NCBI GenBank assembly: GCA_031289755.1
Contig: JAITOU010000023.1
Span: 102,837 to 166,836 of the forward strand
Direction of reading: 5' to 3'
DNA length: 64,000 nt
Source: Clostridiales bacterium
Lineage (GTDB): Bacteria > Bacillota > Clostridia > Christensenellales > JAISNN01
The position numbers and the translations under genes are program-made. Positions 7,619 to 45,750 of this stretch are shown here, piece by piece. Under the pieces are notes generated by a model, which was given only the letters and a program-made list of their open reading frames with translations, searched no databases and was not told the origin of the DNA. Each line of letters begins with the position of its first letter. Positions within the stretch are counted from its first letter, which is position 1.

Positions 7619-8326
7619 TTAGTCTTGTTTGTCCCGATTGTTTTGCTTGTCCTTTTTTTCCTGCTTCTTTTTGTCGATGAAGTCAAAGAGAAAGCCTTTG
7701 CGGTCTACGTCGTAGTCCTTGTAGTAGATGACTATGACAAGCTCTTCGACGAAAGCCAACAAGATTATTACGGCTAAAACCCAAATTACCCACATATACG
7801 ACCGATTAAAGATGATAAAGACGAGAGCGCAAGCCATGAGCGAGCCGCCCGTTATCTTCATCAATATGGTGTGCATAAAGTTGACCTTGCCGAATTTCTG
7901 TCTTGTGACGATACCGGCGGCGGCCTTTATGGCGATAAAGACGCCGAAGAGTATCAAGACTATCGGGAGATTGATATCGCCCTTATCGGGGGATAATACC
8001 TTTAATTCAAACGCGGCATAGATAAAGACCGCTCCGGTAAGAGCCAAATCGGCTATGCCGTCGATTTTTGAGCCGAAGTCCGTGCATATCTTAAAATGAC
8101 GGGCAATCTTGCCGTCGGCTATGTCGCTGATTATACATATGACAAAGATTGCTACAAAAATCCATCGTATGTAGTCCTGATGTATCAGCCCTATCAATAC
8201 GCCCGTGACGGAGAGAATAAGGCGCAGCCACGAAAGGAAATTCGGCAGATTGCGCAGGGTCTTACTGACTTCTTTTGTTTCGACTGTATCGATGTTGTTT
8301 TCGGTCTTGTTGTCGGTCGTTTCCAT
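7619..8326 (-). CDS. CDP-alcohol phosphatidyltransferase family protein
   Basis: Signature D-G-x2-A-R-x8-G-x3-D-x3-D is seen as DGKIARHFKICTDFGSKIDGIAD, in a multi-TM protein. I prefer the ATG at 8326 (METTDNK) over the TTG at 8350 used by the track. Confidence 0.8.
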   Translation of the reverse strand: METTDNKTENNIDTVETKEVSKTLRNLPNFLSWLRLILSVTGVLIGLIHQDYIRWIFVAIFVICIISDIADGKIARHFKICTDFGSKIDGIADLALTGAVFIYAAFELKVLSPDKGDINLPIVLILFGVFIAIKAAAGIVTRQKFGKVNFMHTILMKITGGSLMACALVFIIFNRSYMWVIWVLAVIILLAFVEELVIVIYYKDYDVDRKGFLFDFIDKKKQEKKDKQNNRDKQD

Positions 8327-8471
8327 GATAATCTTTTTCCTCGATGTCAAGCATAGCTTGATTTTTTTTGTATTGGCAATAAGCTTAGGAATCGCCGCAT
8401 AAAATTATCCGATTGTGCGCGAGCGTTTCCTTAGAAATCACCGCGTATTTGCGCGGCGTATTTCTATATAA

Positions 8472-8793: not shown

Positions 8794-8952
8794 GAGTTTA
8801 CAAAACTCTTAATTTAAAGACCGTATGTTCGCATATGCGAACCAAAGAGAGTTGACAAAACTCTTAAATTAAAGGTCATATGTTCGCATATGCGAACTGA
8901 ATTGAGTTTGACAAACTCTTATTTTACGGACCATGCGTTCGCATATGCGAAC
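8794..8952 (+). repeat. Three tandem 55-bp modules, each with a GAGTT..AACTC inverted repeat and the perfect palindrome GTTCGCATATGCGAAC
   Basis: Units at 8794-8842, 8849-8897 and 8904-8952. Palindromes at 8827-8842, 8882-8897 and 8937-8952, spaced exactly 55 bp apart. Confidence 0.9.
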
Positions 8953-9272: not shown

Positions 9273-9506
9273 ATGGACAAAAAACTCAACGACTTTATTC
9301 CCGAAGAAAAGGGGAGAGTCAAATCAATAACGGCGGAAGGCAAGATAAGACGCCGCCTTTTTGACATGGGCGTCACGCCCGGAGCCGAAATCGTTATGCG
9401 CAAGACCGCCCCTCTCGGCGACCCTATCGAGGTCACCGTCAGGGGTTACGAGCTGTCGCTGCGCAAGAGCGAAGCGGAAACCGTACTTATGGAGGTTGTC
9501 AAATGA
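9273..9506 (+). CDS. feoA: FeoA-family protein (second copy)
   Basis: 77 aa with the pattern RRRLFDMGVTPGAEI...GDPIEVTVRGYELSLRKSEA. Its stop overlaps the feoB start (ATGA). Confidence 0.85.
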   Translation: MDKKLNDFIPEEKGRVKSITAEGKIRRRLFDMGVTPGAEIVMRKTAPLGDPIEVTVRGYELSLRKSEAETVLMEVVK

Positions 9507-11800
9507 AATTTGCGTTAGCAGGAAATCCGAACAGCGGAAAGACGACGCTTTTTAACGCGTTGACCGGCAGCACTGCCCACGTCGGCAATTGGCCGGGCGT
9601 CACAATAGACAAAAAATCAGGCATTTACCGCAAGTCCGCCGAAAAAGCCGAAATCATCGATTTGCCGGGAATATATTCTCTTTCGCCTTATTCGCCGGAA
9701 GAGATAGTGTCGAGAAATTTTTTGCTCGGAGAAAGTCCCGATTGTATAATCAACATCGTCGACGCGACAAATCTCGAAAGAAATCTCTATCTGACGACAC
9801 AGCTCATGGAGCTGGACATTCCGATAGTAGTCGCGCTCAACATGATAGACGTCGTTGAAAAGAACAAGGACACGATAGACGCCGACGGATTGAGCAAAAT
9901 ATTAGGCGTACCCGTCGCGACTATAAGCGCGCTCAAAGGCACGGGTATCAAAGAGCTTATGGATAAGGGTATCGAAGCGGTCAAGCGCGGCAGACAAGCC
10001 GAAACCGTTCTCAAAAAGAGCGGAGCAGCCGTACTTATCTCAAAAATCGCCGCGCTTTACGGCGAAAACAAGACGAAGCACCCTTTATTTCACGCCGTCA
10101 AGCTCATAGAAGACGACGAAATCGAAAAGGAAAATTTCCCCGAGATAGCGATTAAAGCGGCGGCTTTAAAAGCCGGTACGGATACGGGAATATTTGAAGG
10201 CGATTTTGAAGGCTATATCGCCGACGCGAGATACAAATACATCTCAGCCGAATTACCGGCCGCCTTCAAAAAAGCTCCTAAGCAAGGCAGCCTGACAAAA
10301 AGCGACAAAATCGACAAGGTTCTCACTCACAAGGTTTGGGGAATACCGATATTTCTCGTCATCATGCTCGCGGTCTTTCACATCACGTTCAGCGAAAACT
10401 TTTTGTTTTTGGGCTTGTTTATACCTGAAGGAACTTTTGACCATGCAATCTTCGGCACGGACGCGATAAATTCGCCCGGTGTGATTATCTTTAATCTCAT
10501 GGATTGGGCGACCGTTTCTTTGGGAGAAGTCATAGCGTCGCTCTTTCCGGACCCGACATGGTATGCAAGCCTGATAAACGACGGCTTGCTCGGCGGCTTG
10601 TTTGCGGTGCTATCCTTTGTACCGCAGATACTCGTACTTTTTTTGTTTCTCTCGATATTAGAGGACAGCGGATATATGGCGCGCGTGGCGTTTATTATGG
10701 ACAGAGCGTTCCGCCGTTTCGGGCTTTCGGGCAAGGCGTTTATGCCGCTCGTAATGTGCTTCGGCTGCGGCGTTCCGGGAATAATGGCGACGAGAACTCT
10801 CGAAAACGAACAGGAAAGAAAGCGCACGATTTTTCTCGCTCCTTTCTTTTCGTGCGGAGCTAAGCTGCCGATATGGGCGGCATTCGCGGGCGTCTTTGCC
10901 CATTACAGGGGACTGAATGCCGAATTTACGGTTTTTTCGATGTACATACTCGGCATAGCCGTAGCGGTCATATCGTCGTTCATTTTAAAACGGACGATAA
11001 TCAAGGGCGAAACGCCGCCGTTTATTATGGAATTGCCTACATATCATTTACCGCAGGTCAAAAACACGGTCATTCACCTTTGGGAGAAGCTCAAACATTA
11101 TGTAATAAGAGCCGGCACGATTATAGCCGGAGCGGTCGTAGTCATCTGGTTTTTGACGTCGTTTAGCTTCAACATCGGCGCGGGACTCGTAGAAGACAGC
11201 GGCGACAGTATCTTGGGCGTCATTTCAAACGGTCTAAAATGGATTTTTTATCCGCTCGGCTTCGGCATGGGTGAGAACGGCTGGAAGTTTGTCGTAGCGA
11301 CTATCACGGGACTGCTCGCCAAAGAAGTTGTCGTGGCGACAATGGGTATCTTTGCCGGAATGGACGGCGACGAAGCATTAGAGACAGAAGGCTCGGAATT
11401 GGGCGATACTCCGCTCGGACTTATGATTATCAGCATAGGGGGAGTACTCGGCGGACTCGATATCGCCGTTCCGGCCATGTTTGCCTTTATGGCGTTCAAC
11501 CTTTTGAGCGTGCCTTGTATGGCGGCGGTAGCCGCCGCAAAGGCGGAATTTAAAAACAACAAATGGCTCTGGAAGGCAATAGCTTTTTGGATAATAACGG
11601 CGTATGCCGTAGCTTGCGTAATCTTTTGGCTCGGCGTTCTCTACACCTTGGCATGGTGGGTAGGATTGCTCGCAACGGTAGGCTTAGCAGTCTTGGTCGT
11701 CTACGGCGTGAGATTTGCCGGAGCTTTAATCGACAAGAAAAACGGCAAAACGGATAAAATAAACATCAAAGAGCTTTTTCTCTTCAAAAAAATAAAATAA
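9503..11800 (+). CDS. feoB: Ferrous iron transporter FeoB
   Basis: 765 aa. N-terminal G domain (GNPNSGKTTLFN, DLPG, NMID) followed by a polytopic membrane domain. Confidence 0.97.
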   Translation: MKFALAGNPNSGKTTLFNALTGSTAHVGNWPGVTIDKKSGIYRKSAEKAEIIDLPGIYSLSPYSPEEIVSRNFLLGESPDCIINIVDATNLERNLYLTTQLMELDIPIVVALNMIDVVEKNKDTIDADGLSKILGVPVATISALKGTGIKELMDKGIEAVKRGRQAETVLKKSGAAVLISKIAALYGENKTKHPLFHAVKLIEDDEIEKENFPEIAIKAAALKAGTDTGIFEGDFEGYIADARYKYISAELPAAFKKAPKQGSLTKSDKIDKVLTHKVWGIPIFLVIMLAVFHITFSENFLFLGLFIPEGTFDHAIFGTDAINSPGVIIFNLMDWATVSLGEVIASLFPDPTWYASLINDGLLGGLFAVLSFVPQILVLFLFLSILEDSGYMARVAFIMDRAFRRFGLSGKAFMPLVMCFGCGVPGIMATRTLENEQERKRTIFLAPFFSCGAKLPIWAAFAGVFAHYRGLNAEFTVFSMYILGIAVAVISSFILKRTIIKGETPPFIMELPTYHLPQVKNTVIHLWEKLKHYVIRAGTIIAGAVVVIWFLTSFSFNIGAGLVEDSGDSILGVISNGLKWIFYPLGFGMGENGWKFVVATITGLLAKEVVVATMGIFAGMDGDEALETEGSELGDTPLGLMIISIGGVLGGLDIAVPAMFAFMAFNLLSVPCMAAVAAAKAEFKNNKWLWKAIAFWIITAYAVACVIFWLGVLYTLAWWVGLLATVGLAVLVVYGVRFAGALIDKKNGKTDKINIKELFLFKKIK

Positions 11801-12171: not shown

Positions 12172-12296
12172 ATTCCGTATAATTAAGCCGCCGCTTTAAG
12201 TCGTGACACGGCTTAAAGGCTATTGCTTATTTGCCCGGAATATGATAATATTAGATTATTCCTAAAATCTAAACGCCTTTAAAAGGATAGAATTTA

Positions 12297-12779
12297 ATGA
12301 AAAAATATGATATTGTAGAGTTAATAAACGACGACGGTACGCTTTTTGAGAAAGGGATAAAGAAGGGCTGTATCGGTATTTTGTCGGGAGATAATGAAAA
12401 TAACGGATTTGCGGTATTGTTTTTAAATAATAAAAACGCAGGCGAATATGCCGTCGCAACGGCAAGAGAAAGGGATTTGAAGCTGTTAGGGGAAATCCCG
12501 AACGAGTATAAAGCGGATATGGAAAAAAAGCTAAACGCCCCCGATTTCTTTAAAAATATCCGATTCAAACAAAGCGCCGTAAAGGAATACGATTTAGTTG
12601 AGCTTATTGTCGATAAGCCCGAATATTCGGAATGGGGCATCTTTAAGGGAATGCGGGGCTGCGTAATGAGCGGCTACGCTATTATGAGCGCATGGCAGGT
12701 GATTTTTTCGGAGAACGGAACGGGCAGGGATATTGCAGATATTTCAGTCAAGGAAGAAGATTTTAAGGTCGTCAAATAA
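12297..12779 (+). CDS. Hypothetical protein with two tandem ~75-aa repeats (DUF4926-like by pattern)
   Basis: Both halves begin K(K/E)YD(I/L)VELI and contain G(I/F)(K/F)KG..G. The family assignment is from memory only. Confidence 0.5.
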   Translation: MKKYDIVELINDDGTLFEKGIKKGCIGILSGDNENNGFAVLFLNNKNAGEYAVATARERDLKLLGEIPNEYKADMEKKLNAPDFFKNIRFKQSAVKEYDLVELIVDKPEYSEWGIFKGMRGCVMSGYAIMSAWQVIFSENGTGRDIADISVKEEDFKVVK

Positions 12780-14289: not shown

Positions 14290-14414
14290 ACGCGCTCCTT
14301 AAAATAAGCCTGTCGGGCAAGAAGATAAATTATAAGCAAGGATTTCTTAATTATTACAGTGTATGAAAAAGCCGTATTTACATTGCTTTTTTTGCCGAAA
14401 CATTGTATAATAGA

Positions 14415-14570
14415 TTAGTCCTATAACCTATCCGCCGACATATTTTGCGTCTTTTTGGCTTATACATCGTTGCATTATCCTAATGTAGCTTACGCTACAC
14501 GTCGTCAAATGCGCCTTGTATAAGCCAAAAATCCGCTAAAATCTGTTCGTCATATAGGTTATAGGACTAA
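14415..14570 (+). repeat. Rod-like hairpin element, copy 1 of 3
   Basis: 17-bp perfect outer stem, 15-bp perfect middle stem and an apical GTAGC-TTAC-GCTAC hairpin. 94% identical (9 differences in 156 nt) to 37032-37187. Confidence 0.9.
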
Positions 14571-14638
14571 TAAAATATTATCGCGCCGCAAACGCTTTTT
14601 TAAAGATTTAGACCTTACAGAGTACTACGGAGAAAAAT

Positions 14639-15418
14639 ATGCTCAAATTGTGTCCGTTAGGCAGCGGAAGCAAAGGAAATTGTATTTATTTAGAATCCGG
14701 AGAGTCCAGGCTGCTGATAGACGCGGGCTTGCCTTTTTTGGAGATAAAAAGACGTTTAAGAGAGATTGACGTCCGCCTTTGCGACCTTACGGGAGTTGTC
14801 ATAACCCACGAACACACCGACCATATCAACGGTCTTTCGGGCTTTTGCGGAAGCGGCGTTCCCGTTTTTGTCCACGACTATGTCGTGAGAATTATCGAAA
14901 GCAAATTTCCTAAGCTCGATATAAGGGGCATAAGAGAAGAAGCATTTGATTTGTCGGGGCTTAGAGTCAAGCCCTTTAAGATACCGCATGACGCCGTATA
15001 TCCCTTAGGATACAGATTTACCGACGGCAAGCTTTCGGCAAGCGTAGCGACGGATATAGGACGCGTCACGGAGAGTATAATAGACAACATGAAGGACAGC
15101 GACCTGATTGTCGCGGAAGCCAATCACGACGAAGATATGCTCATGAAGGGCGCATACCCTTATCAGTTAAAACAACGTATAATAGGCGGCAAGGGGCATA
15201 TCAACAACGCTTTGTCGGCGGAATTATTGACAAAAATCGTGACGGGACGCACAAAGAATATCTTTTTGGCTCATTTGAGCGAAGAAAATAATTTGCCGGA
15301 ATTAGCCTTCGACATAGTGGCAAAGTATTTATCGGCGCATAATATACACGAAGGCTCGGACGTAAAAATCGAGGTTTTGAAGCAGAGAGAAAGGGGAAGC
15401 CTTACGGTAGTGTATTAG
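14639..15418 (+). CDS. MBL-fold metallo-hydrolase (YycJ/WalJ-like)
   Basis: 259 aa. Contains GSGSKGNC and THEHTDHINGL. Confidence 0.85.
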   Translation: MLKLCPLGSGSKGNCIYLESGESRLLIDAGLPFLEIKRRLREIDVRLCDLTGVVITHEHTDHINGLSGFCGSGVPVFVHDYVVRIIESKFPKLDIRGIREEAFDLSGLRVKPFKIPHDAVYPLGYRFTDGKLSASVATDIGRVTESIIDNMKDSDLIVAEANHDEDMLMKGAYPYQLKQRIIGGKGHINNALSAELLTKIVTGRTKNIFLAHLSEENNLPELAFDIVAKYLSAHNIHEGSDVKIEVLKQRERGSLTVVY

Positions 15419-32160: not shown

Positions 32161-32217
32161 AAAACGGATTGTTTTATTAAGCTGTATTCAATACAGTTTA
32201 ATAAAACAATCCGTTTT
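32161..32217. repeat. 57-bp near-perfect palindrome (28-bp arms, 1 mismatch)
   Basis: AAAACGGATTGTTTTATTAAGCTGTATT-C-AATACAGTTTAATAAAACAATCCGTTTT. Confidence 0.9.
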
Positions 32218-32413: not shown

Positions 32414-34105
32414 ATGGATTATATAAAAGAAATTGCGGAATTTATAAAAATAGACGGTGTTGAGCAAGGGGAGATAATTGCCGCCGTCGTGCCTGCCGCC
32501 GAAAGCGCTTTCGGGGATTATTCTTTGCCGTGCTTTAAATTTTCTAAGGTTTTAAAAAAATCGCCGAATTTGATAGCGGCGGAATTGAAAGAAAGCTTGT
32601 CGGCAAGCAAGCCGGATTTTATCGAAAAAATCGATGCGGTCGGCGGATATTTAAATTTCACTCTTGACAGAATGCTTTTTGTCAAAGCGACCTTGACCGA
32701 TATTATTGCAAGGGGAGCGGATTACGGCTCTTCGGACGAAGGGAGCGGCAAGACCGTTTGTATAGATTTTTCCTCTATCAATATCGCGAAGCCTTTTCAT
32801 ATAGGTCATCTCGGAACGACGGTGATAGGGGCTGCGCTCTACCGTATATTTAAAAAGTTAGGATACAATGTCGTCGGTATCAATCATCTCGGAGATTTCG
32901 GAACGCAATTCGGCAAGCTCATAGTCGCATACAAGCTCTGGGGCGACAAGACCGATATCGAGAAAAACGGCTTAAAATCGCTTGTCGATATTTACGTCAG
33001 ATTTCACAAGGAAGAAGAAGACAAGCCGGAGCTTACCGCGAGAGCGAGAGAATGGTTTTTAAGGATAGAAAAGGGCGATGCGGAAGCGACGGAGCTTTTT
33101 AATTTTTTTAAAGCTATAACGATGAAGGAAGTAGACAAGACCTACGAAAGACTCGGCGTTCATTTTGACAGCTACGCCGGAGAAAGCTTTTATAACGACA
33201 AAATGCAGCCGGTTATAGACGAGCTAAAAGCAAAAAATCTCTTGGAGATAAGCGACGGCGCGTCGATTGTAGACCTTTCGCCGTACGATATGCCGCCTTG
33301 TCTTATACTTAGAAGCGACGGCGCGTCTTTGTACGCGACAAGGGATTTGGCGACGATTTTTTATAGGAAAAAAACCTACGATTTTGATAAATGCCTTTAT
33401 GTCGTGGCGTATCAGCAAAACCTGCATTTCAAACAGGTTTTTAAGGTCATCGAATTGCTCGGTCACGAATATTACAAAGACCTTATACACGTAGCTTACG
33501 GCATGGTTTCGTTAGAAGAAGGCGCGATGTCGACCAGAAAGGGCAACATGGTCTATTTAAGCGACGTTCTCGATAAGGCAAGCGAAAAATCTCTGGCGAT
33601 AATCGGAGAAAAGTCGCCCGACTTAAAAAATCCGCGTGAAACGGCGGAAGCCGTCGGAGTAGGCGCGGTGATTTTTGGCGCACTCATCAATAACCGAATC
33701 AAGGACAACGTATTTTCTTACGAAAAAATACTCAATTTTGACGGCGAAACTGGGCCGTATCTCCAATACACCTATGCGAGATGCAACAGCATTTTGGAAA
33801 AGGCGGGGAAAATCGGCGATGCGGATATGTCGTCGATAGCCGGCGACGAAGCCTATGAGCTTGTCAAGCTGCTCAAACGCTATCCCGAAGTCTTAAAGTC
33901 GGCTAAGGAAAATTACGAACCGAGCTTTGTCACGAGATATCTCATCGACACGGCTCAGGCTTATAACAAATTTTATTTTGAATACAGAATACTCAACGAA
34001 AAGCAAGAGGTTAAAAACGCACGCGTCATGCTGACAAAAGCCGCTGCCGGAATATTAAAGGACGGGTTCGGGATAATCGGAATAAAAGCCGTAGAGCATA
34101 TGTAA
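32414..34105 (+). CDS. argS: Arginine--tRNA ligase
   Basis: 563 aa. Contains PFHIGHLG and MSTRKG (a KMSKS variant), with a C-terminal anticodon-binding domain. Confidence 0.97.
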   Translation: MDYIKEIAEFIKIDGVEQGEIIAAVVPAAESAFGDYSLPCFKFSKVLKKSPNLIAAELKESLSASKPDFIEKIDAVGGYLNFTLDRMLFVKATLTDIIARGADYGSSDEGSGKTVCIDFSSINIAKPFHIGHLGTTVIGAALYRIFKKLGYNVVGINHLGDFGTQFGKLIVAYKLWGDKTDIEKNGLKSLVDIYVRFHKEEEDKPELTARAREWFLRIEKGDAEATELFNFFKAITMKEVDKTYERLGVHFDSYAGESFYNDKMQPVIDELKAKNLLEISDGASIVDLSPYDMPPCLILRSDGASLYATRDLATIFYRKKTYDFDKCLYVVAYQQNLHFKQVFKVIELLGHEYYKDLIHVAYGMVSLEEGAMSTRKGNMVYLSDVLDKASEKSLAIIGEKSPDLKNPRETAEAVGVGAVIFGALINNRIKDNVFSYEKILNFDGETGPYLQYTYARCNSILEKAGKIGDADMSSIAGDEAYELVKLLKRYPEVLKSAKENYEPSFVTRYLIDTAQAYNKFYFEYRILNEKQEVKNARVMLTKAAAGILKDGFGIIGIKAVEHM

Positions 34106-36379: not shown

Positions 36380-37003
36380 ATGAAGATTTTGACAATTGTA
36401 AATTCCGTTTTGGCGGAAAACACTTATATAGTCTATGACGAAGCGACTTTAAAGGGCTTTATCGTAGACCCCGGCTCGGACGGAGAGAGAATAGAATCGG
36501 CTATCGGGGATAACGGACTGATTGTAGACACGGTTCTATTGACGCACGGACATTTTGACCATGCGCAATCTGCGCGGTTTTTTCAAAAGAAAAAGCTCAA
36601 AGTTTACATTCACAAAGCCGACGGCGAAAAGCTGTATTCGCGGTTTAATTTGAGCCGTTATACCGGCTACGCCTTTGAAGAGCTGCACGCCGACGCCGAA
36701 TTGTCCGACGGTGATATTGTCAATGCCGCAGGCTTTGATATCAAGACGGTTTTTACGCCGGGACACTCTAAGGGCGGCGTGTGTTATTATCTCAAAGAAC
36801 ACGGAGTCTTGTTCTCGGGCGACACGCTGTTTTCGGACGGGATAGGAAGAAGCGATTTTTATGACGGCGACTTCGCAACCCTAAAAAATTCCATTGAAAC
36901 GCGGCTTTTTATTCTCGACGGCGCGACGGCGGTTTTTCCCGGTCACGACGAAGCCACGACGATAGCAAAGGAACGGAATAACAAGGATTTATTCGGTGTA
37001 TAA
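36380..37003 (+). CDS. MBL-fold metallo-hydrolase (glyoxalase II-like)
   Basis: 207 aa. Contains LLTHGHFDH and FTPGHSKG. Confidence 0.9.
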   Translation: MKILTIVNSVLAENTYIVYDEATLKGFIVDPGSDGERIESAIGDNGLIVDTVLLTHGHFDHAQSARFFQKKKLKVYIHKADGEKLYSRFNLSRYTGYAFEELHADAELSDGDIVNAAGFDIKTVFTPGHSKGGVCYYLKEHGVLFSGDTLFSDGIGRSDFYDGDFATLKNSIETRLFILDGATAVFPGHDEATTIAKERNNKDLFGV

Positions 37004-37031
37004 TGAAGCATATAAGAAACGATATAATAGA

Positions 37032-37187
37032 TTAGTCCTATAACCTATCCGCCGACATATTTTGCGTCTTTTTGCCTTATACATCGTTGCCTTTTCCTTG
37101 TGTAGCTTATGCTACACGGCGTCAAATGCGCCTTGTATAAGGCAAAAATCCGCTACAATCTGTTCGTCATATAGGTTATAGGACTAA
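37032..37187 (+). repeat. Rod-like hairpin element, copy 2 of 3
   Basis: Same architecture as copy 1. A compensatory G-C to C-G exchange sits in the 15-bp stem (37075/37142 vs 14458/14525). Confidence 0.9.
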
Positions 37188-37364
37188 TCTAATATAGAAA
37201 GTAACGATCAGGGGGTGATGTATATAAGGAAGTCAGGACAATGGAAAATATGAAAATGTTCGTACATAAATAAATTAGAACAATGGGAGATTGTTCCGTA
37301 CATAAATAAATTAGGGATTTTTATAAAGTAAGTAAAAAAATATTAAAAAGGGGATAGTATACTT

Positions 37365-38609
37365 ATGGATAAAAATCTTATCGCTAACCAATCCAATGTC
37401 ACAATATTACCGGAAGCACCGAACAGAATGCGGTCGATAGACCAGATTCGCGGACTGCTTATATTTTTAAACGCCGTAACTTATATTTGCGGTGCGTTTG
37501 TAGCAATAACCTCAAAGCTTCCGTTTGTTAACGGAGACAAATTTACGTTTGAATTATTGAAGGGCATTCCGCTCGACGATATTTTCTTGCCGATGTTCGT
37601 TTTTATCATGGGCTTAACGGCTTGCAGCAGCTTCAAAAAATTGCAGGAAGCCAAAGGGCAAACCTTTGCGGCTAAGAAATTCGCCTTTAAATACTTGGTT
37701 TTAATCGGCTTCGGTACGGTGATGATGGACGGACTTGCTTGTGCTTACGAATTTATCGCCGGAAAAATTTTAAGCGAATTTAAACTCGGCGAGCAAGCCG
37801 CAATCATATTGTTTTTTGCTTGTCTGCCGCTGATACTGTTTTATTTTATAACCAAAATTATCAGGAACAAAAAGCTAACCAAAATCGCCGGATTGATGAT
37901 AAAAATCGTTTGGGCATTCGGCGGCGCGGCGGCGGTATTTTTCTTGGCGACCTCGACGGGGGCAATTTTTAGCGGTGTGCCGCAGCAAAATATTTGGGAC
38001 GTTTTTCAAACGATAGGTCTGGCGGGTCTGATAGCCCTTCCGTTTATGGGACTGAATAGATATGGCAAGCTTATCGCGGCTCTTGCTTTGGGCGTGCTTT
38101 TGACGGCGTTTTACCGATACGGCGGTTTACAGGGCTTCGGCGACAATATCTTTAACGGCGGTCTTGTAGGCGGCTTCGGCTGGGCTATCGCTGTTTTGTT
38201 AGGCGGATACTTCCGTGACGTCAAGCAAAAGCCCGTTTTGTATTGGGTGTCCGCTATCGTCGCGGTAGCCGTTCCGGCGGTGCTTGTCACGGTCTTTGGC
38301 TTTGTGGCGGTAAGGCGCGGCTGTACGCCCGTTTACGCGGTTTTTGCCTCCGGCTTAGGCGCGGTTATCTGGGGGATTTTTAATCTGATAGAGAGAGTCT
38401 ATAAGCCTAAGTACAGCTTTTTGAGTATCTGGGGCGGCTCGTCGCTCCTGACCTACGCCTTATCTATGGTTTTCGCGACCCTGCTTCAAACCTTTGTGCC
38501 GATAGAAACGCCGCTTTTTGCGGCAATAATCGTCTCCGTCGTCATCGTCGGCGGCTTATACGCTTTAAATCATATTTTGACCCGAAAAGATATACACATC
38601 AAAATATAG
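37365..38609 (+). CDS. Polytopic membrane protein (DUF5009 / heparan-alpha-glucosaminide N-acetyltransferase-like N-terminus)
   Basis: 414 aa with at least 10 hydrophobic segments. RMRSIDQIRGLLIFLN resembles the R..S.D..RG start of that family. Confidence 0.45.
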   Translation: MDKNLIANQSNVTILPEAPNRMRSIDQIRGLLIFLNAVTYICGAFVAITSKLPFVNGDKFTFELLKGIPLDDIFLPMFVFIMGLTACSSFKKLQEAKGQTFAAKKFAFKYLVLIGFGTVMMDGLACAYEFIAGKILSEFKLGEQAAIILFFACLPLILFYFITKIIRNKKLTKIAGLMIKIVWAFGGAAAVFFLATSTGAIFSGVPQQNIWDVFQTIGLAGLIALPFMGLNRYGKLIAALALGVLLTAFYRYGGLQGFGDNIFNGGLVGGFGWAIAVLLGGYFRDVKQKPVLYWVSAIVAVAVPAVLVTVFGFVAVRRGCTPVYAVFASGLGAVIWGIFNLIERVYKPKYSFLSIWGGSSLLTYALSMVFATLLQTFVPIETPLFAAIIVSVVIVGGLYALNHILTRKDIHIKI

Positions 38610-41806: not shown

Positions 41807-42008
41807 TAAAAAATCCCTTTTTATTTTGTTGCGGAAACACGGTGCAAAGCAAATAAAACTTTAAGCCGAGCTTCCTTATATATTTTTTACCTTATATATT
41901 ATATAATATAATCGGAAAAATGCAATATAAAACCGAAAAATTATGAGAGAAAATTATTATATTCAAAAATTTTTTGTAAATATTAAGCGAATATGATATA
42001 ATAGAATT

Positions 42009-42152
42009 GTCATAAACTAAACGCCGACAACTTTTGCGTCTTTTGTCATAAATATCGTTGCATTTTCCTTATGTAGCTAAGCTGCACGTCGTCAAATGCG
42101 CCTTAATCTACGGCAAAAATCCGCTAAAATTTGTTCGGCGTTTAGGTTTAGG
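42009..42152 (+). repeat. Rod-like hairpin element, copy 3 of 3 (diverged)
   Basis: The central core (ATCGTTGCATT.TCCT.ATGTAGCT..GCT.CACGTCGTCAAATGCGCCTT and CAAAAATCCGCTAAAAT.TGTTCG) is conserved. The outer stem is replaced by a different but still complementary sequence. Confidence 0.8.
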
Positions 42153-42191
42153 AGAAGTCTGATAGACTTCTTATATTAAGACGGGGGGATT

Positions 42192-43046
42192 ATGAGCGAT
42201 AAAATAAATTGGTTTCCGGGGCATATGAAAAAAGCCTTAGGAATAATCGGCGAAAATTTGGGACTTGTCGACGCGGTGTTGTATGTGCTTGACGCGAGAG
42301 CCCCCGGCGCGTGTATCAATCCCGGCTTTGAAAAGATATTGAACGAAAAACCGAGATTGTATATTCTCAACAAAGCCGACCTTGTGGACGACGGCTATCT
42401 CAAACTTTGGTCGGAATACTTCCGCAAATCGGGTCACGCCTGCACGGCGGTCAACAGCGCGACGGGGATAACGTCGGGCGTTATCAAAGAGGTCAGGACG
42501 CTGCTTGCGGAAAAGATACAAAGATACAAGGACAAGGGCGTCAAAAAGACTCTTAGAATAATGGTCATCGGCATACCAAATTCGGGCAAATCCACACTCA
42601 TCAACAGCATAGGCGGCAAAAAAAAGACCGCCACGGGCGACAAGCCCGGTGTGACAAAGACAAAGCAATGGGTAAAAATAAGCGACGGTATCGAAATGCT
42701 CGACACGCCCGGCGCATTGTGGCCTAATCTCGAAGACCAGGAAGCGGCAAAGAATTTATTTTTTATCGGGAGTATCAAGCCGGAGATTTTTGACAATACC
42801 GAGCTTGCGCTCATGCTGATAGAGCGGCTAAAAGAAACCGCACCCGACAAGCTCGAAAGCCGCTACGGCTTACCGCCGACCGAGAATATTGCGCCGACCG
42901 AAATACTCGAAATAATCGCCAAAAACAGGGGCAACGTCGTCAAAGGCGGCGAAGCCGATTTTGACCGAACCGCCATAGCTCTCTTAGACGACTTCAAAAA
43001 AGCGCGCATAGGCAGAATAGGTTTAGAAAAGCCCGACATACAATAA
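42192..43046 (+). CDS. rbgA: Ribosome biogenesis GTPase A (YlqF/RbgA)
   Basis: Contains NWFPGHMKKA, NKADL and GIPNSGKSTLIN (circularly permuted GTPase). Confidence 0.95.
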   Translation: MSDKINWFPGHMKKALGIIGENLGLVDAVLYVLDARAPGACINPGFEKILNEKPRLYILNKADLVDDGYLKLWSEYFRKSGHACTAVNSATGITSGVIKEVRTLLAEKIQRYKDKGVKKTLRIMVIGIPNSGKSTLINSIGGKKKTATGDKPGVTKTKQWVKISDGIEMLDTPGALWPNLEDQEAAKNLFFIGSIKPEIFDNTELALMLIERLKETAPDKLESRYGLPPTENIAPTEILEIIAKNRGNVVKGGEADFDRTAIALLDDFKKARIGRIGLEKPDIQ

Positions 43047-43756: not shown

Positions 43757-43989
43757 AGATAATCGGTATTTAAGGATATGCAATAGATGACGGAATAAGT
43801 CCTTATTGCGGTATTCCAGAAAAATATAAATTCCGATAAACGGATTAGGGCGTGTCGGCACTAACGGTAAAGCTGTTTGTGTCTGCACGCCTTTATTATA
43901 TAAGCTCAAACCGTTTTTTTGATAATTTTGTAATATCGCGCTAATATTGCGAATATATTTCTTTTAGACAATCGTTTTAAGGAGTGCGT

Positions 43990-45471
43990 ATGGACAAATT
44001 CGATTTATACAAGGATATTGCATTAAGGACGAACGGCGATATCTACATCGGCGTAGTAGGGCCGGTAAGGACGGGCAAATCCACTTTTATCAGAAAGTTT
44101 ATGGAGGCGTTTGTACTTGAAAATATTCTTGACGCCAATAAAAGACAGCGAGCCGTAGACGAAATGCCGCAATCGGCGGACGGCAAAACCATTATGACGA
44201 CGCAGCCAAAATTTGTGCCGGCGGAGTCGGCGGAGATTGTCATAAACGACAATATAAAGCTCAATGTGCGGCTCATAGACTGCGTAGGTTATCTCGTGGA
44301 CGGGGCGTTGGGGCATACCGAGAACGGCAAGGAGCGTTATGTCGTCACGCCTTGGAGCGATACCGAAATGCCCTTTGAAAAAGCCGCCGAAACGGGAACG
44401 AGAAAGGTCATCAACGACCATTCGACGATAGGCGTAGTCGTGACGACCGACGGCAGTATAACCGATATCGAACGGAGCAAATATCTCGCCGCCGAAGACA
44501 GAGTAATCAATGAATTAAAGGCGATAGGCAAGCCTTTTGTAATACTGCTAAATTCCAAAAATCCCGAAAACCCCGACACGCTCAATCTAAAATCCGTTTT
44601 GGAACAGCGTTACGGCGCGACGGTGCTTTTAAAGAACGTCGAGAATATGGAAAAAGAAGACATCAACGCCCTGCTCGAATCTATCCTGCTCGAATTTCCC
44701 GTCAAGATAATAGACGTCAATATGCCAAAATGGATGCAGTCGCTCGGCGGCTCTCATGTCATTATAAAGGACCTTATGGCGCGCCTTGCCGACGCGGCGG
44801 ACGGCATAGACAAGATGAAGGATTATGACGAAAATATATTGAAGGGCTTCGGCGAATCCGAATATATCGGCGGCGCGGACGACGCGCAGTTAGATATGGG
44901 CAAGGGCAAAATAAGCTTCTCGGTCATACCCAAAGCCGGCTTGTTTTATAAGATACTCAGCGAAACGGCGGGGGAGGACGTATCGGACGAATACATCATG
45001 ATGAAGCTCATAAGGCGTTTAAAGAATGCCGACAGAGAATACTCCAAGCTAAGCCGCGCACTCTACGAAGTGGAAAACTACGGCTACGGAGTGGTAGTAC
45101 CCACGACGGAAGAAATGAGCCTTGAAGAGCCGGTCATCGTCCGTCAGGGCGGCAAATTCGGCGTCAAGCTCCGCGCTTCCGCGCCGTCCCTGCATATAAT
45201 GAAGGTGGACGTCCAAGCCGAAGTCAGCCCGATAATCGGCACGGAACAGCAAAGCGAGGACATGATAAAATACCTTTTAAGCGAATTTGAAAACAACAAG
45301 CAGGGCATATGGGAAACGAATATGTTCGGCAAATCTCTCAACATGATGGTCAAGGAAGGGCTAAATAACAAGCTCACCGCCATGCCCGAGGAAGCGCGCA
45401 ACAAGATGAGAAAAACTCTCACGCGAATCGTCAACGAAGGCAAGGGGGGAGTGGTGTGTATTCTTCTTTGA
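43990..45471 (+). CDS. spoIVA: Stage IV sporulation protein A
   Basis: Contains IYIGVVGPVRTGKSTFIRKFME (Walker A). About 492 aa. ATG at 43990 after AAGGAG. Confidence 0.96.
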   Translation: MDKFDLYKDIALRTNGDIYIGVVGPVRTGKSTFIRKFMEAFVLENILDANKRQRAVDEMPQSADGKTIMTTQPKFVPAESAEIVINDNIKLNVRLIDCVGYLVDGALGHTENGKERYVVTPWSDTEMPFEKAAETGTRKVINDHSTIGVVVTTDGSITDIERSKYLAAEDRVINELKAIGKPFVILLNSKNPENPDTLNLKSVLEQRYGATVLLKNVENMEKEDINALLESILLEFPVKIIDVNMPKWMQSLGGSHVIIKDLMARLADAADGIDKMKDYDENILKGFGESEYIGGADDAQLDMGKGKISFSVIPKAGLFYKILSETAGEDVSDEYIMMKLIRRLKNADREYSKLSRALYEVENYGYGVVVPTTEEMSLEEPVIVRQGGKFGVKLRASAPSLHIMKVDVQAEVSPIIGTEQQSEDMIKYLLSEFENNKQGIWETNMFGKSLNMMVKEGLNNKLTAMPEEARNKMRKTLTRIVNEGKGGVVCILL

Positions 45472-45486
45472 AAGGGCAGAGCCACC

Positions 45487-45594
45487 GCGCTAACGCTTTC
45501 TTTTTTGCTCTTTCTTGCGAAACCGACACTCGTTGAGGTCACTCTAACTTCGGTCGCTTTCGCAAGAAATAGCTAAAAAATAAAGCGTTATCGC
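45487..45594. other. 108-nt near-perfect long hairpin just downstream of spoIVA
   Basis: About 36-38 bp are pairable around a 27-nt loop. The outer arms GCGCTAACGCTTTCTTTTTT / AAAAAATAAAGCGTTATCGC were paired by hand. Confidence 0.8.
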
Positions 45595-45750
45595 TGTCAA
45601 AAAGCTCTAACGAATTTTAATATGCGTTCTCTCACCGCTAACGTATACGGAAATGTGTTATGAAAACAAATGATATTTATTAAACCCAAATGTCAAAGAG
45701 TTTTTTTATCGTTCTTGACTTGACGTATTTACTCACTTTACAATGGACAA

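Follow-up and report, generated by a model that had tools for sequence, protein, structure and literature searches.

The bcr1 repeats of the Bacillus cereus group (which belong to bcr Group A and are about 155 bp long) are transcribed, keep their fold by compensatory changes and include copies that have lost stability (PMC3184786). The Correia elements (CREE/nemis) of Neisseria are 100-157 bp long and carry terminal inverted repeats around a directional core, often 5' of genes; their ends can create promoters if the flanking sequence cooperates, and the hairpin in the transcript is an RNase III substrate (PMC2649163). The ERIC/IRU and REP/BIME sequences of enterobacteria are imperfect palindromes in transcribed intergenic regions, often just past stop codons, and such ERIC and REP palindromes alter mRNA decay (PMC3184786). 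REPs are 20-40 bp long and G+C-rich, terminate in GTAG or CGTC and are associated with RAYT transposases (PMC3733652). Finally, MITEs such as RUP and Nezha are small (<300 bp), non-coding, intergenic elements with terminal inverted repeats, present as several near-identical copies.

Here we describe a hairpin element that occurs as three full copies and one probable short variant in 64,000 nucleotides of DNA from a Clostridiales bacterium (GCA_031289755.1, contig JAITOU010000023.1, positions 102,837 to 166,836 of the forward strand; this whole stretch is called “the window” below). All four are intergenic and all lie on the plus strand. The hairpin family is previously undescribed, and in kind it belongs with the structured interspersed bacterial repeats such as bcr1, Correia and ERIC. 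With moderate confidence, we take it to be a new lineage-specific, probably mobile, structured intergenic repeat family in a clade of uncultured gut Clostridiales.

The element resembles bcr1 in its Firmicute host, its similar size, its dispersal between genes in a pattern that relatives do not conserve, and a fold that is kept by compensatory changes, as in the published description (PMC3184786): what we found are dispersed, non-syntenic copies in which compensatory changes have kept the fold. The loss of stability reported for some bcr1 copies is of the same kind as that seen in one window copy (copy 3) and in a degenerate copy from a related assembly (L119b, below). Unlike bcr1, which consists of two independent stem-loops flanked by 5-bp direct repeats, the element is a single long rod for which no such repeats can be defined, and the hosts differ.

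With Correia the element shares its size class, terminal inverted repeats around a directional core and a frequent position 5' of genes; the TATAAT at its tip also recalls the promoter-forming ends of Correia, although a consensus scan gave a full match for copy 3 only. In Correia, however, 26-bp terminal repeats are conserved and a TA duplication is documented, whereas in our element conservation lies in the core, the arms are variable and no duplication was seen; no IHF site was identified in it, and the host phylum is different. Like the ERIC and REP sequences, it is an imperfect palindrome of probably transcribed intergenic regions, with five of its seven members 10-44 nt past a stop codon, but it has no known sequence relationship to them. 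It further departs from REP/REPIN in its length (about 170 nt) and A/T-richness, in having GTAG or CGTC only inside the apical hairpin, and in that no RAYT gene was found in the DNA searched. In its small size, non-coding nature, terminal inverted repeats and several near-identical intergenic copies it is like a MITE, but neither a target-site duplication nor a parent insertion sequence was found for it, and its termini are less conserved than its centre whereas the terminal repeats of a MITE are conserved.

Copies and anatomy of the element in the window

The window is an origin-proximal housekeeping region (gyrB, gyrA, metK, feoB, cysS, argS, relA and others). Since about 80% of its genes are on the plus strand and there is no transposase among the ORFs scanned, the shared plus orientation of the copies counts for little as evidence. 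Scores are given below for R1, a covariance model built from the three full window copies and used to search related assemblies, and for model R2.

12246..12277, plus strand: stretch resembling the 5' end of the element, TGATAATATTAGATTATTCCTAAAATCTAAACGCC (blastn E 0.009-0.03), upstream of an ORF at 12297-12779
14406..14580, plus strand: copy 1 (R1 199 bits; R2 core 14439-14545, 119 bits on the plus strand and 38.8 on the minus strand)
37023..37197, plus strand: copy 2 (R1 204 bits; R2 core 37056-37162, 118 bits)
C 37075 and G 37142, plus strand: bases of the swapped pair in copy 2, paired with each other
41974..42002, plus strand: sigma-70-like promoter match (TTGTAA, 17 nt, TG-n-TATAAT; consensus scan)
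41997..42167, plus strand: copy 3, from a blastn self-search (R1 151 bits; R2 98 bits)
45484..45597, plus strand: copy 4, a probable short variant (R1 28.7 bits; R2 26.7 bits, E 4e-4 over the window)

Copy 1 lies in the divergent intergenic region between an M14 peptidase gene and an MBL-fold hydrolase gene (14639-15418), with its 3' end about 60 nt upstream of the hydrolase ATG. An MBL-fold gene (36380-37003) stops 20 nt upstream of copy 2, whose 3' end lies 168 nt short of a 414-aa ORF without a Pfam match (37365-38609). Copy 3, which is absent from the first-pass annotation of this DNA, is about 81% identical to copies 1 and 2 and folds with dG -51.7 (z -5.1); it too is found between divergent genes, and its 3' end is 24 nt upstream of the ATG of rbgA/ylqF (42192-43046), which is followed by rnhB. 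Copy 4, a tentative member of the family, starts 13 nt past the spoIVA stop codon (gene at 43984-45471) and forms a rod of 114 nt (dG -57.5, z -6.6) that keeps the flanking motifs UUUUUUGCUC ... UAGCUAAAAAAU, with a different inner stem and without the large apical domain. The stretch at 12246-12277, about 30 nt long and just upstream of a DUF4926 ORF, may be a remnant of the element or a chance resemblance, and model R2 gave it no support.

Across the family, members are about 115-175 nt long (~170 nt for full members), with a G+C content of 35-42% and arms of 32-33 nt that are 81-88% complementary. From the outside inward, the rod consists of a long outer stem of about 18-21 bp, variable in sequence; a middle stem, UUUUGCG / CGC-U-AAAA, in which one U is bulged; inside it, a 2x2 loop of UC opposite UC; a covarying inner stem of 12-15 bp, followed by a loop with UCG; a second helix, UGCAUUU / AAAUGCG, in which one U.G pair is kept in all five full-length members; and, beyond this helix, a loop with CGNCG and a covarying apical hairpin of 6-9 bp. 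The conserved motifs thus follow one another in an asymmetric order (UUUUGCG-UC ... UCGUUGC ... apical hairpin ... CGNCG ... AAAUGC ... AAUCCGC-U-AAAA), and the inner stems drift in sequence with their pairing retained. The core has a clear polarity, scoring 119 bits with R2 on one strand vs 39 on the other. Wobble pairs are rare on both strands, and in each of the six sequences folded the reverse strand is the more stable by 3-11 kcal/mol; because it folds better everywhere, the G.U asymmetry gives no support to the proposed RNA strand.

The first-pass annotation had raised the possibility that the TATAAT upstream of copy 2 belongs to the repeat, and indeed it begins copies 1-3 as well as the degenerate copy L119b. 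The string TATAATAGA begins copies 1-3 and four of the seven members in all, each of the four having a gene 24-240 nt downstream. In copy 2 the terminal repeat does extend outward to TATAATAGATTAGTCC / GGACTAATCTAATATA, as had been described, with one mismatch and with the outermost TATA reached on both sides. Only at copy 3 did the scan return a full promoter match that uses the TATAAT of the element: the -35 box is in the flank and the -10 box is the first six bases of the copy. At copies 1 and 2 the same scan found no equivalent match and no -35 box.

Several other small repeats were seen in the window. Three copies of a perfect 16-bp palindrome, GTTCGCATATGCGAAC, lie 55 bp apart at 8827-8952, between a CDP-alcohol phosphatidyltransferase gene (7619-8350, minus strand) and feoB (9503-11800, plus strand), and look like a triple operator site. 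Just 3' of copy 2, at 37240-37315 and upstream of the 414-aa ORF, two direct repeats GTTC(C)GTACATAAATAAATTAG each end a tiny ORF (MENMKMFVHK and MGDCSVHK, each followed by a stop) and could be leader peptides or a binding site. A very A/T-rich 28-nt hairpin (96% complementary, 1-nt loop) lies at 32161-32217, ~200 nt upstream of argS (32414-34105); Rfam gave no T-box upstream of argS or cysS.

Homologues in related assemblies and paired changes in the stems

The comparison covered about 180 kb of DNA around rbgA, ftsH and the 414-aa gene of relatives. One JGI contig (L036; sample 3300005071) comes from the same species, with 99% RbgA identity, and begins inside copy 3, its positions 1-127 being 100% identical to that copy; such a break point fits an assembly that broke at a repeat. 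In the next relatives RbgA identity is 63-74% and gene order differs, and the following members were found in two of them.

L119 8250-8416, minus strand: L119a (R1 77.5 bits, E 4e-17; R2 101.9 bits), from ENA ERZ28633439
L119 ~1909-2022: L119b, a degenerate copy that begins GTATAATAGA and ends TCTAATGTA as the window copies do, with the apical hairpin lost
L123 1874-2044, plus strand: L123a (R1 51 bits; R2 77.9 bits), from GCA_031273965.1

RbgA is 64% identical to that of the window in L119 and 74% identical in L123, and the L119 core was also recovered from sequence alone by nhmmer (E 2.5e-5). Both L119a (-70.1 kcal/mol, z -10) and L123a (-79.0 kcal/mol, z -10.1) fold as rods, with stem sequences very unlike those of the window copies. 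Both are directly 3' of ftsH, between convergent genes, in opposite orientations, which could be due either to the centre having been flipped by recombination between the arms or to the site having been hit twice.

None of the five related assemblies sampled at rbgA (L033, L034, L118, L119 and L121) has the element upstream of that gene, and neither of the two sampled at the 414-aa gene (L086 and L087) has it there, so it is not a conserved leader of either gene; given this absence at rbgA and the unrelated functions of the downstream genes, a conserved rbgA leader or riboswitch was ruled out. Three weak matches (L034 13846-13905, L034 7090-7196 and L118 13019-13117) were taken as noise, and a match at L122 8833-8992 (21.8 bits) is another repeat, made of two terminator-like hairpins in tandem, and not a family member. 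That repeat (GCA_031276195.1) consists of two ~75-nt units directly after ftsH, each with a terminator-like hairpin GGGGAGAAAACTTTTTATAAAAAAGTTTCTCCCC, and occupies the same post-ftsH position as the hairpin element in L119 and L123.

Attention had first been drawn to the element by copies 1 and 2, which were said to differ at nine of 156 positions (14415-14570 in copy 1, 37032-37187 in copy 2), two of the nine being the partners of one base pair. A recount gives exactly nine changes (copy 1 to copy 2: 14458 G>C, 14474 A>C, 14477 A>T, 14482 A>T, 14483 A>G, 14493 C>T, 14502 T>G, 14525 C>G and 14539 A>C), and the pair in question, G14458-C14525 in copy 1 and C37075-G37142 in copy 2, is present in both folds, inside the 15-bp stem TTTTTG[G/C]CTTATACA / TGTATAAG[C/G]CAAAAA. 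The other seven changes had all been assigned to loops, which holds for four of them but not for three: 14474 A>C disrupts a pair in copy 1's minimum-free-energy fold, as does 14539 A>C, and 14477 A>T turns an A.A mismatch of the family structure into a U-A pair. Copies 1 and 2 each fold as a single long rod, and the suggested comparison with shuffled controls bears out the stability of both (copy 1, -69.5 kcal/mol, z -11.9; copy 2, -77.5, z -13.4; dinucleotide shuffles); the opposite strand folds about as well, as does the sequence under DNA parameters.

One compensatory pair had rightly been called only suggestive: when nine random substitutions were simulated on the fold, at least one pair was doubly changed yet still paired in 7.4% of trials, a chance P of about 0.07. 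Elsewhere in the family this pair is C-G in L119a, U.G in copy 3 and U.U in L123a, and by these states and the C-G of copy 2, it is copy 1 that bears the derived state. A change between C:G and G:C passes through no wobble intermediate and needs two transversions. The swap may have its origin in selection or in a one-step template-switch mutation; template switching at replication, inside a quasi-palindrome, can yield such a double change in one step (PMC8794818).

The family as a whole speaks more fully. We aligned five full-length members from three organisms (the three window copies, L119a and L123a) as 107-nt cores with MAFFT, the alignment not being fitted to structure and the structure being written from the individual folds. 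In this core alignment, paired cells amount to 88.8%, and 20 of the 36 core pairs have changed on both sides and still pair, vs 7.0 +/- 1.9 in shuffles, none of 500 reaching 20; with partners slid by 1-3 columns, just 2-6 pairs had changed on both sides. Independently, of the 31 pairs that RNAalifold predicted from the full-length MAFFT alignment, 13 had changed on both sides, vs 5.3 +/- 1.6 in shuffles. The three window copies alone give four such pairs vs 1.3 +/- 1.0 (reached by 5 of 500 shuffles) and include 13 pairs with unpaired cells. Comparison of copy 2 with L119a gives an identity of 45% in paired columns and 63% in unpaired columns, the unpaired motifs being better conserved than the stems, and every full-length member folds alone into a rod, with z from -5 to -13.

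By these shuffle counts (20 of 36 and 13 of 31 pairs), the paired positions of the collected homologues covary beyond expectation, and the proposal that selection maintains the hairpin, made from one pair, is supported across five members, with none of the 500 shuffles as high. The hairpin shape is thus actively kept, the evidence that the structure is maintained being unusually clear. Throughout the family the two arms change together as a rule, and the G:C>C:G swap that separates copies 1 and 2 is a single case of it.

If there were no selection, copies 1 and 2 would simply be recent duplicates of a palindrome and the swap would have arisen by chance or by a single arm-to-arm template switch. 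The P of about 0.07 for the swap taken alone fits such an origin, as does the type of change, G:C>C:G by two transversions without a wobble step, which is that of a template switch (PMC8794818), and the 13 pairs of copy 3 with unpaired cells are readable as decay. However, the core and the rod are common to organisms whose RbgA and FtsH proteins are 64-78% identical, with stems down to 45%, a distance at which neutral DNA would be unrecognisable; the covariation lies above all 500 shuffles and all slid controls; and template switching leaves the missing structure-breaking changes unexplained. We therefore consider a history free of selection to be highly improbable, and at the family level it is largely refuted by the covariation. 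Template switching may supply double changes, but the survival of the fold at such divergence is left unexplained by it.

Known families, RNA genes and candidate enzymes

Rfam at gathering thresholds returned tRNA alone for the window, and 6S RNA, T-box, riboswitch and SRP RNA were set aside with no Rfam match reaching threshold. In E-value mode, copies 2 and 3 and the L123 copy matched microRNA-precursor hairpins only, at 20-43 bits vs thresholds of 94-211; these matches are spurious and reflect a long hairpin and nothing more. A small protein gene was ruled out, there being no conserved ORF common to the copies. Blastn against plasmids and phages gave no match, and three viral contig scans gave chance matches only. 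A scan of genome contigs with the terminal 16-mer TAGTCCTATAACCTAT gave 32 single matches, none with the element, the pattern being that of a variable arm; a scan of metagenome contigs with GTCAAATGCGCC-N(8-20)-AAATCCGC gave 43 chance matches only.

The members could be non-mobile structured ncRNA genes or cis-regulatory leaders, each with its own TATAAT promoter, with loops that bind a protein or ligand and stems under selection at the RNA level. Conserved loops together with stems that covary are what classically marks a functional RNA, and the core is strand-specific, with its U.G pair in five of five members. Moreover, each of the four members (of seven) that begin with TATAATAGA points at its downstream gene, copy 3 has a full promoter match, and the element is in sense orientation in all three tandem-gene intergenic regions in which it occurs. 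Against this, the downstream genes are unrelated in function (MBL hydrolase, a protein of unknown function, rbgA and Fe-ADH); L119a and L123a have no TATAAT and lie between convergent genes; copies 1 and 2 have no -35 box; the element is missing upstream of rbgA in the five relatives; and the opposite strand folds better. A terminator tail, too, is present in no member: no rho-independent terminator was found at the 3' end of copies 1-3, whose tails read AATATT, AATATAG and GATAGAC. We regard such RNA genes or leaders as possible, though on balance unlikely.

A new class of functional structured RNA, in an uncultured, probably insect-gut, Clostridiales clade, strikes us as doubtful. Its conserved core of ~110 nt, with three covarying helices and invariant internal-loop nucleotides that include the universal U.G pair and a bulged U, would bind a protein or act in trans, and the long outer stem and the TATAAT would provide stability and expression.

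It might also be DNA in which the hairpin is read. Here, a single-stranded or cruciform hairpin with its bulges would be recognised by a HUH/tyrosine transposase of the IS200/IS605-RAYT type or by a recombinase, which would spread the element and require the fold. As DNA, copy 2 folds at -44.7 kcal/mol (z -11), wobble pairs favour neither strand, and conserved unpaired bases in a variable stem are what hairpin-recognising transposases read (REP/RAYT; PMC3733652). GTAG or CGTC strings occur in the apical hairpins but may be coincidence, and the opposite orientations of L119a and L123a after ftsH fit arm-flipping or repeated targeting of one site. However, no HUH transposase, RAYT or recombinase gene was found among about 35 window ORFs or the genes called in ~180 kb of related DNA, the Pfam scan of the window ORFs returning no transposase domain, and the element is A/T-rich and four to eight times the length of a REP. 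Furthermore, an imperfect palindrome of 170 bp needs strong supercoiling to extrude as a cruciform. Recognition as DNA by such an enzyme is, in our judgment, decidedly unlikely.

A search of the window for the terminal 16-mer hits nothing but the arms of copies 1 and 2, and no parent insertion sequence with matching ends was found in the window. The flanks of the members have A/T-rich, ambiguous ends that permit TA or TAT readings, with no consistent target-site duplication; a TAAAAAC direct repeat near L123a is 10 nt off the stem on one side. Two further candidates were rejected. Integron attC sites are imperfect palindromes of 57-141 bp with RYYYAAC/GTTRRRY boxes, one per cassette, in arrays beside promoterless cassettes. 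The copies here are 3-22 kb apart among housekeeping genes (relA, rbgA, spoIVA), and the nearest strings resembling attC boxes, CTATAAC and GTTATAG, are off consensus. A plasmid single-strand origin had been considered from a TAGCGT string, which we take to be a CS-6-like single-strand origin motif; the strands are inconsistent and the context is chromosomal housekeeping DNA.

Probable spread, role and significance

The reading we prefer remains a structured, probably mobile intergenic repeat. Copies 1 and 2 share 94% of their bases, with stems and tips counted in, although they are 22 kb apart and adjoin unrelated genes, and members are found at different places in three organisms. From these near-identical copies at unrelated loci, the scattered members and the absence of the element at the matching loci of relatives, we infer that it spreads, by copy-and-paste or by transposition; small mobile repeats are distributed in this way.

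Of the seven members, five start 10-44 nt past the stop codon of a same-strand gene and the remaining two sit 24-60 nt before a start codon. From these positions, an inserted element would be transcribed within the neighbouring mRNA, and co-transcription into UTRs is probable. By analogy with Correia, ERIC and REP, the long hairpin in the RNA would then alter the processing or stability of the mRNA, either as an RNase III substrate or as a block to 3' exonucleases, and the TATAAT of the 5' tip would serve as a -10 box solely where the flank offers a -35 box, as the consensus match for copy 3 suggests. By that analogy, the likely effect is on how the mRNA is processed or how stable it is, and now and then the element would donate a -10 box; it may act either as RNA or as DNA.

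In cultured bacteria, small structured repeats of the Correia, ERIC, REP and bcr1 types rewire promoters and the stability of mRNAs; the uncultured gut Clostridia are nearly blank in this respect. For annotation and assembly, the family is relevant in that the element sits at the boundaries of rbgA, spoIVA and ftsH, carries a promoter-like TATAAT and coincides, in copy 3, with a contig break. More broadly, the family is a clean case of arm sequences that turn over under a fold that persists across deep divergence (RbgA identity as low as 64%), and it can be used to ask what keeps such hairpins: selection on the RNA, an enzyme that acts on the DNA, or template-switch mutation.
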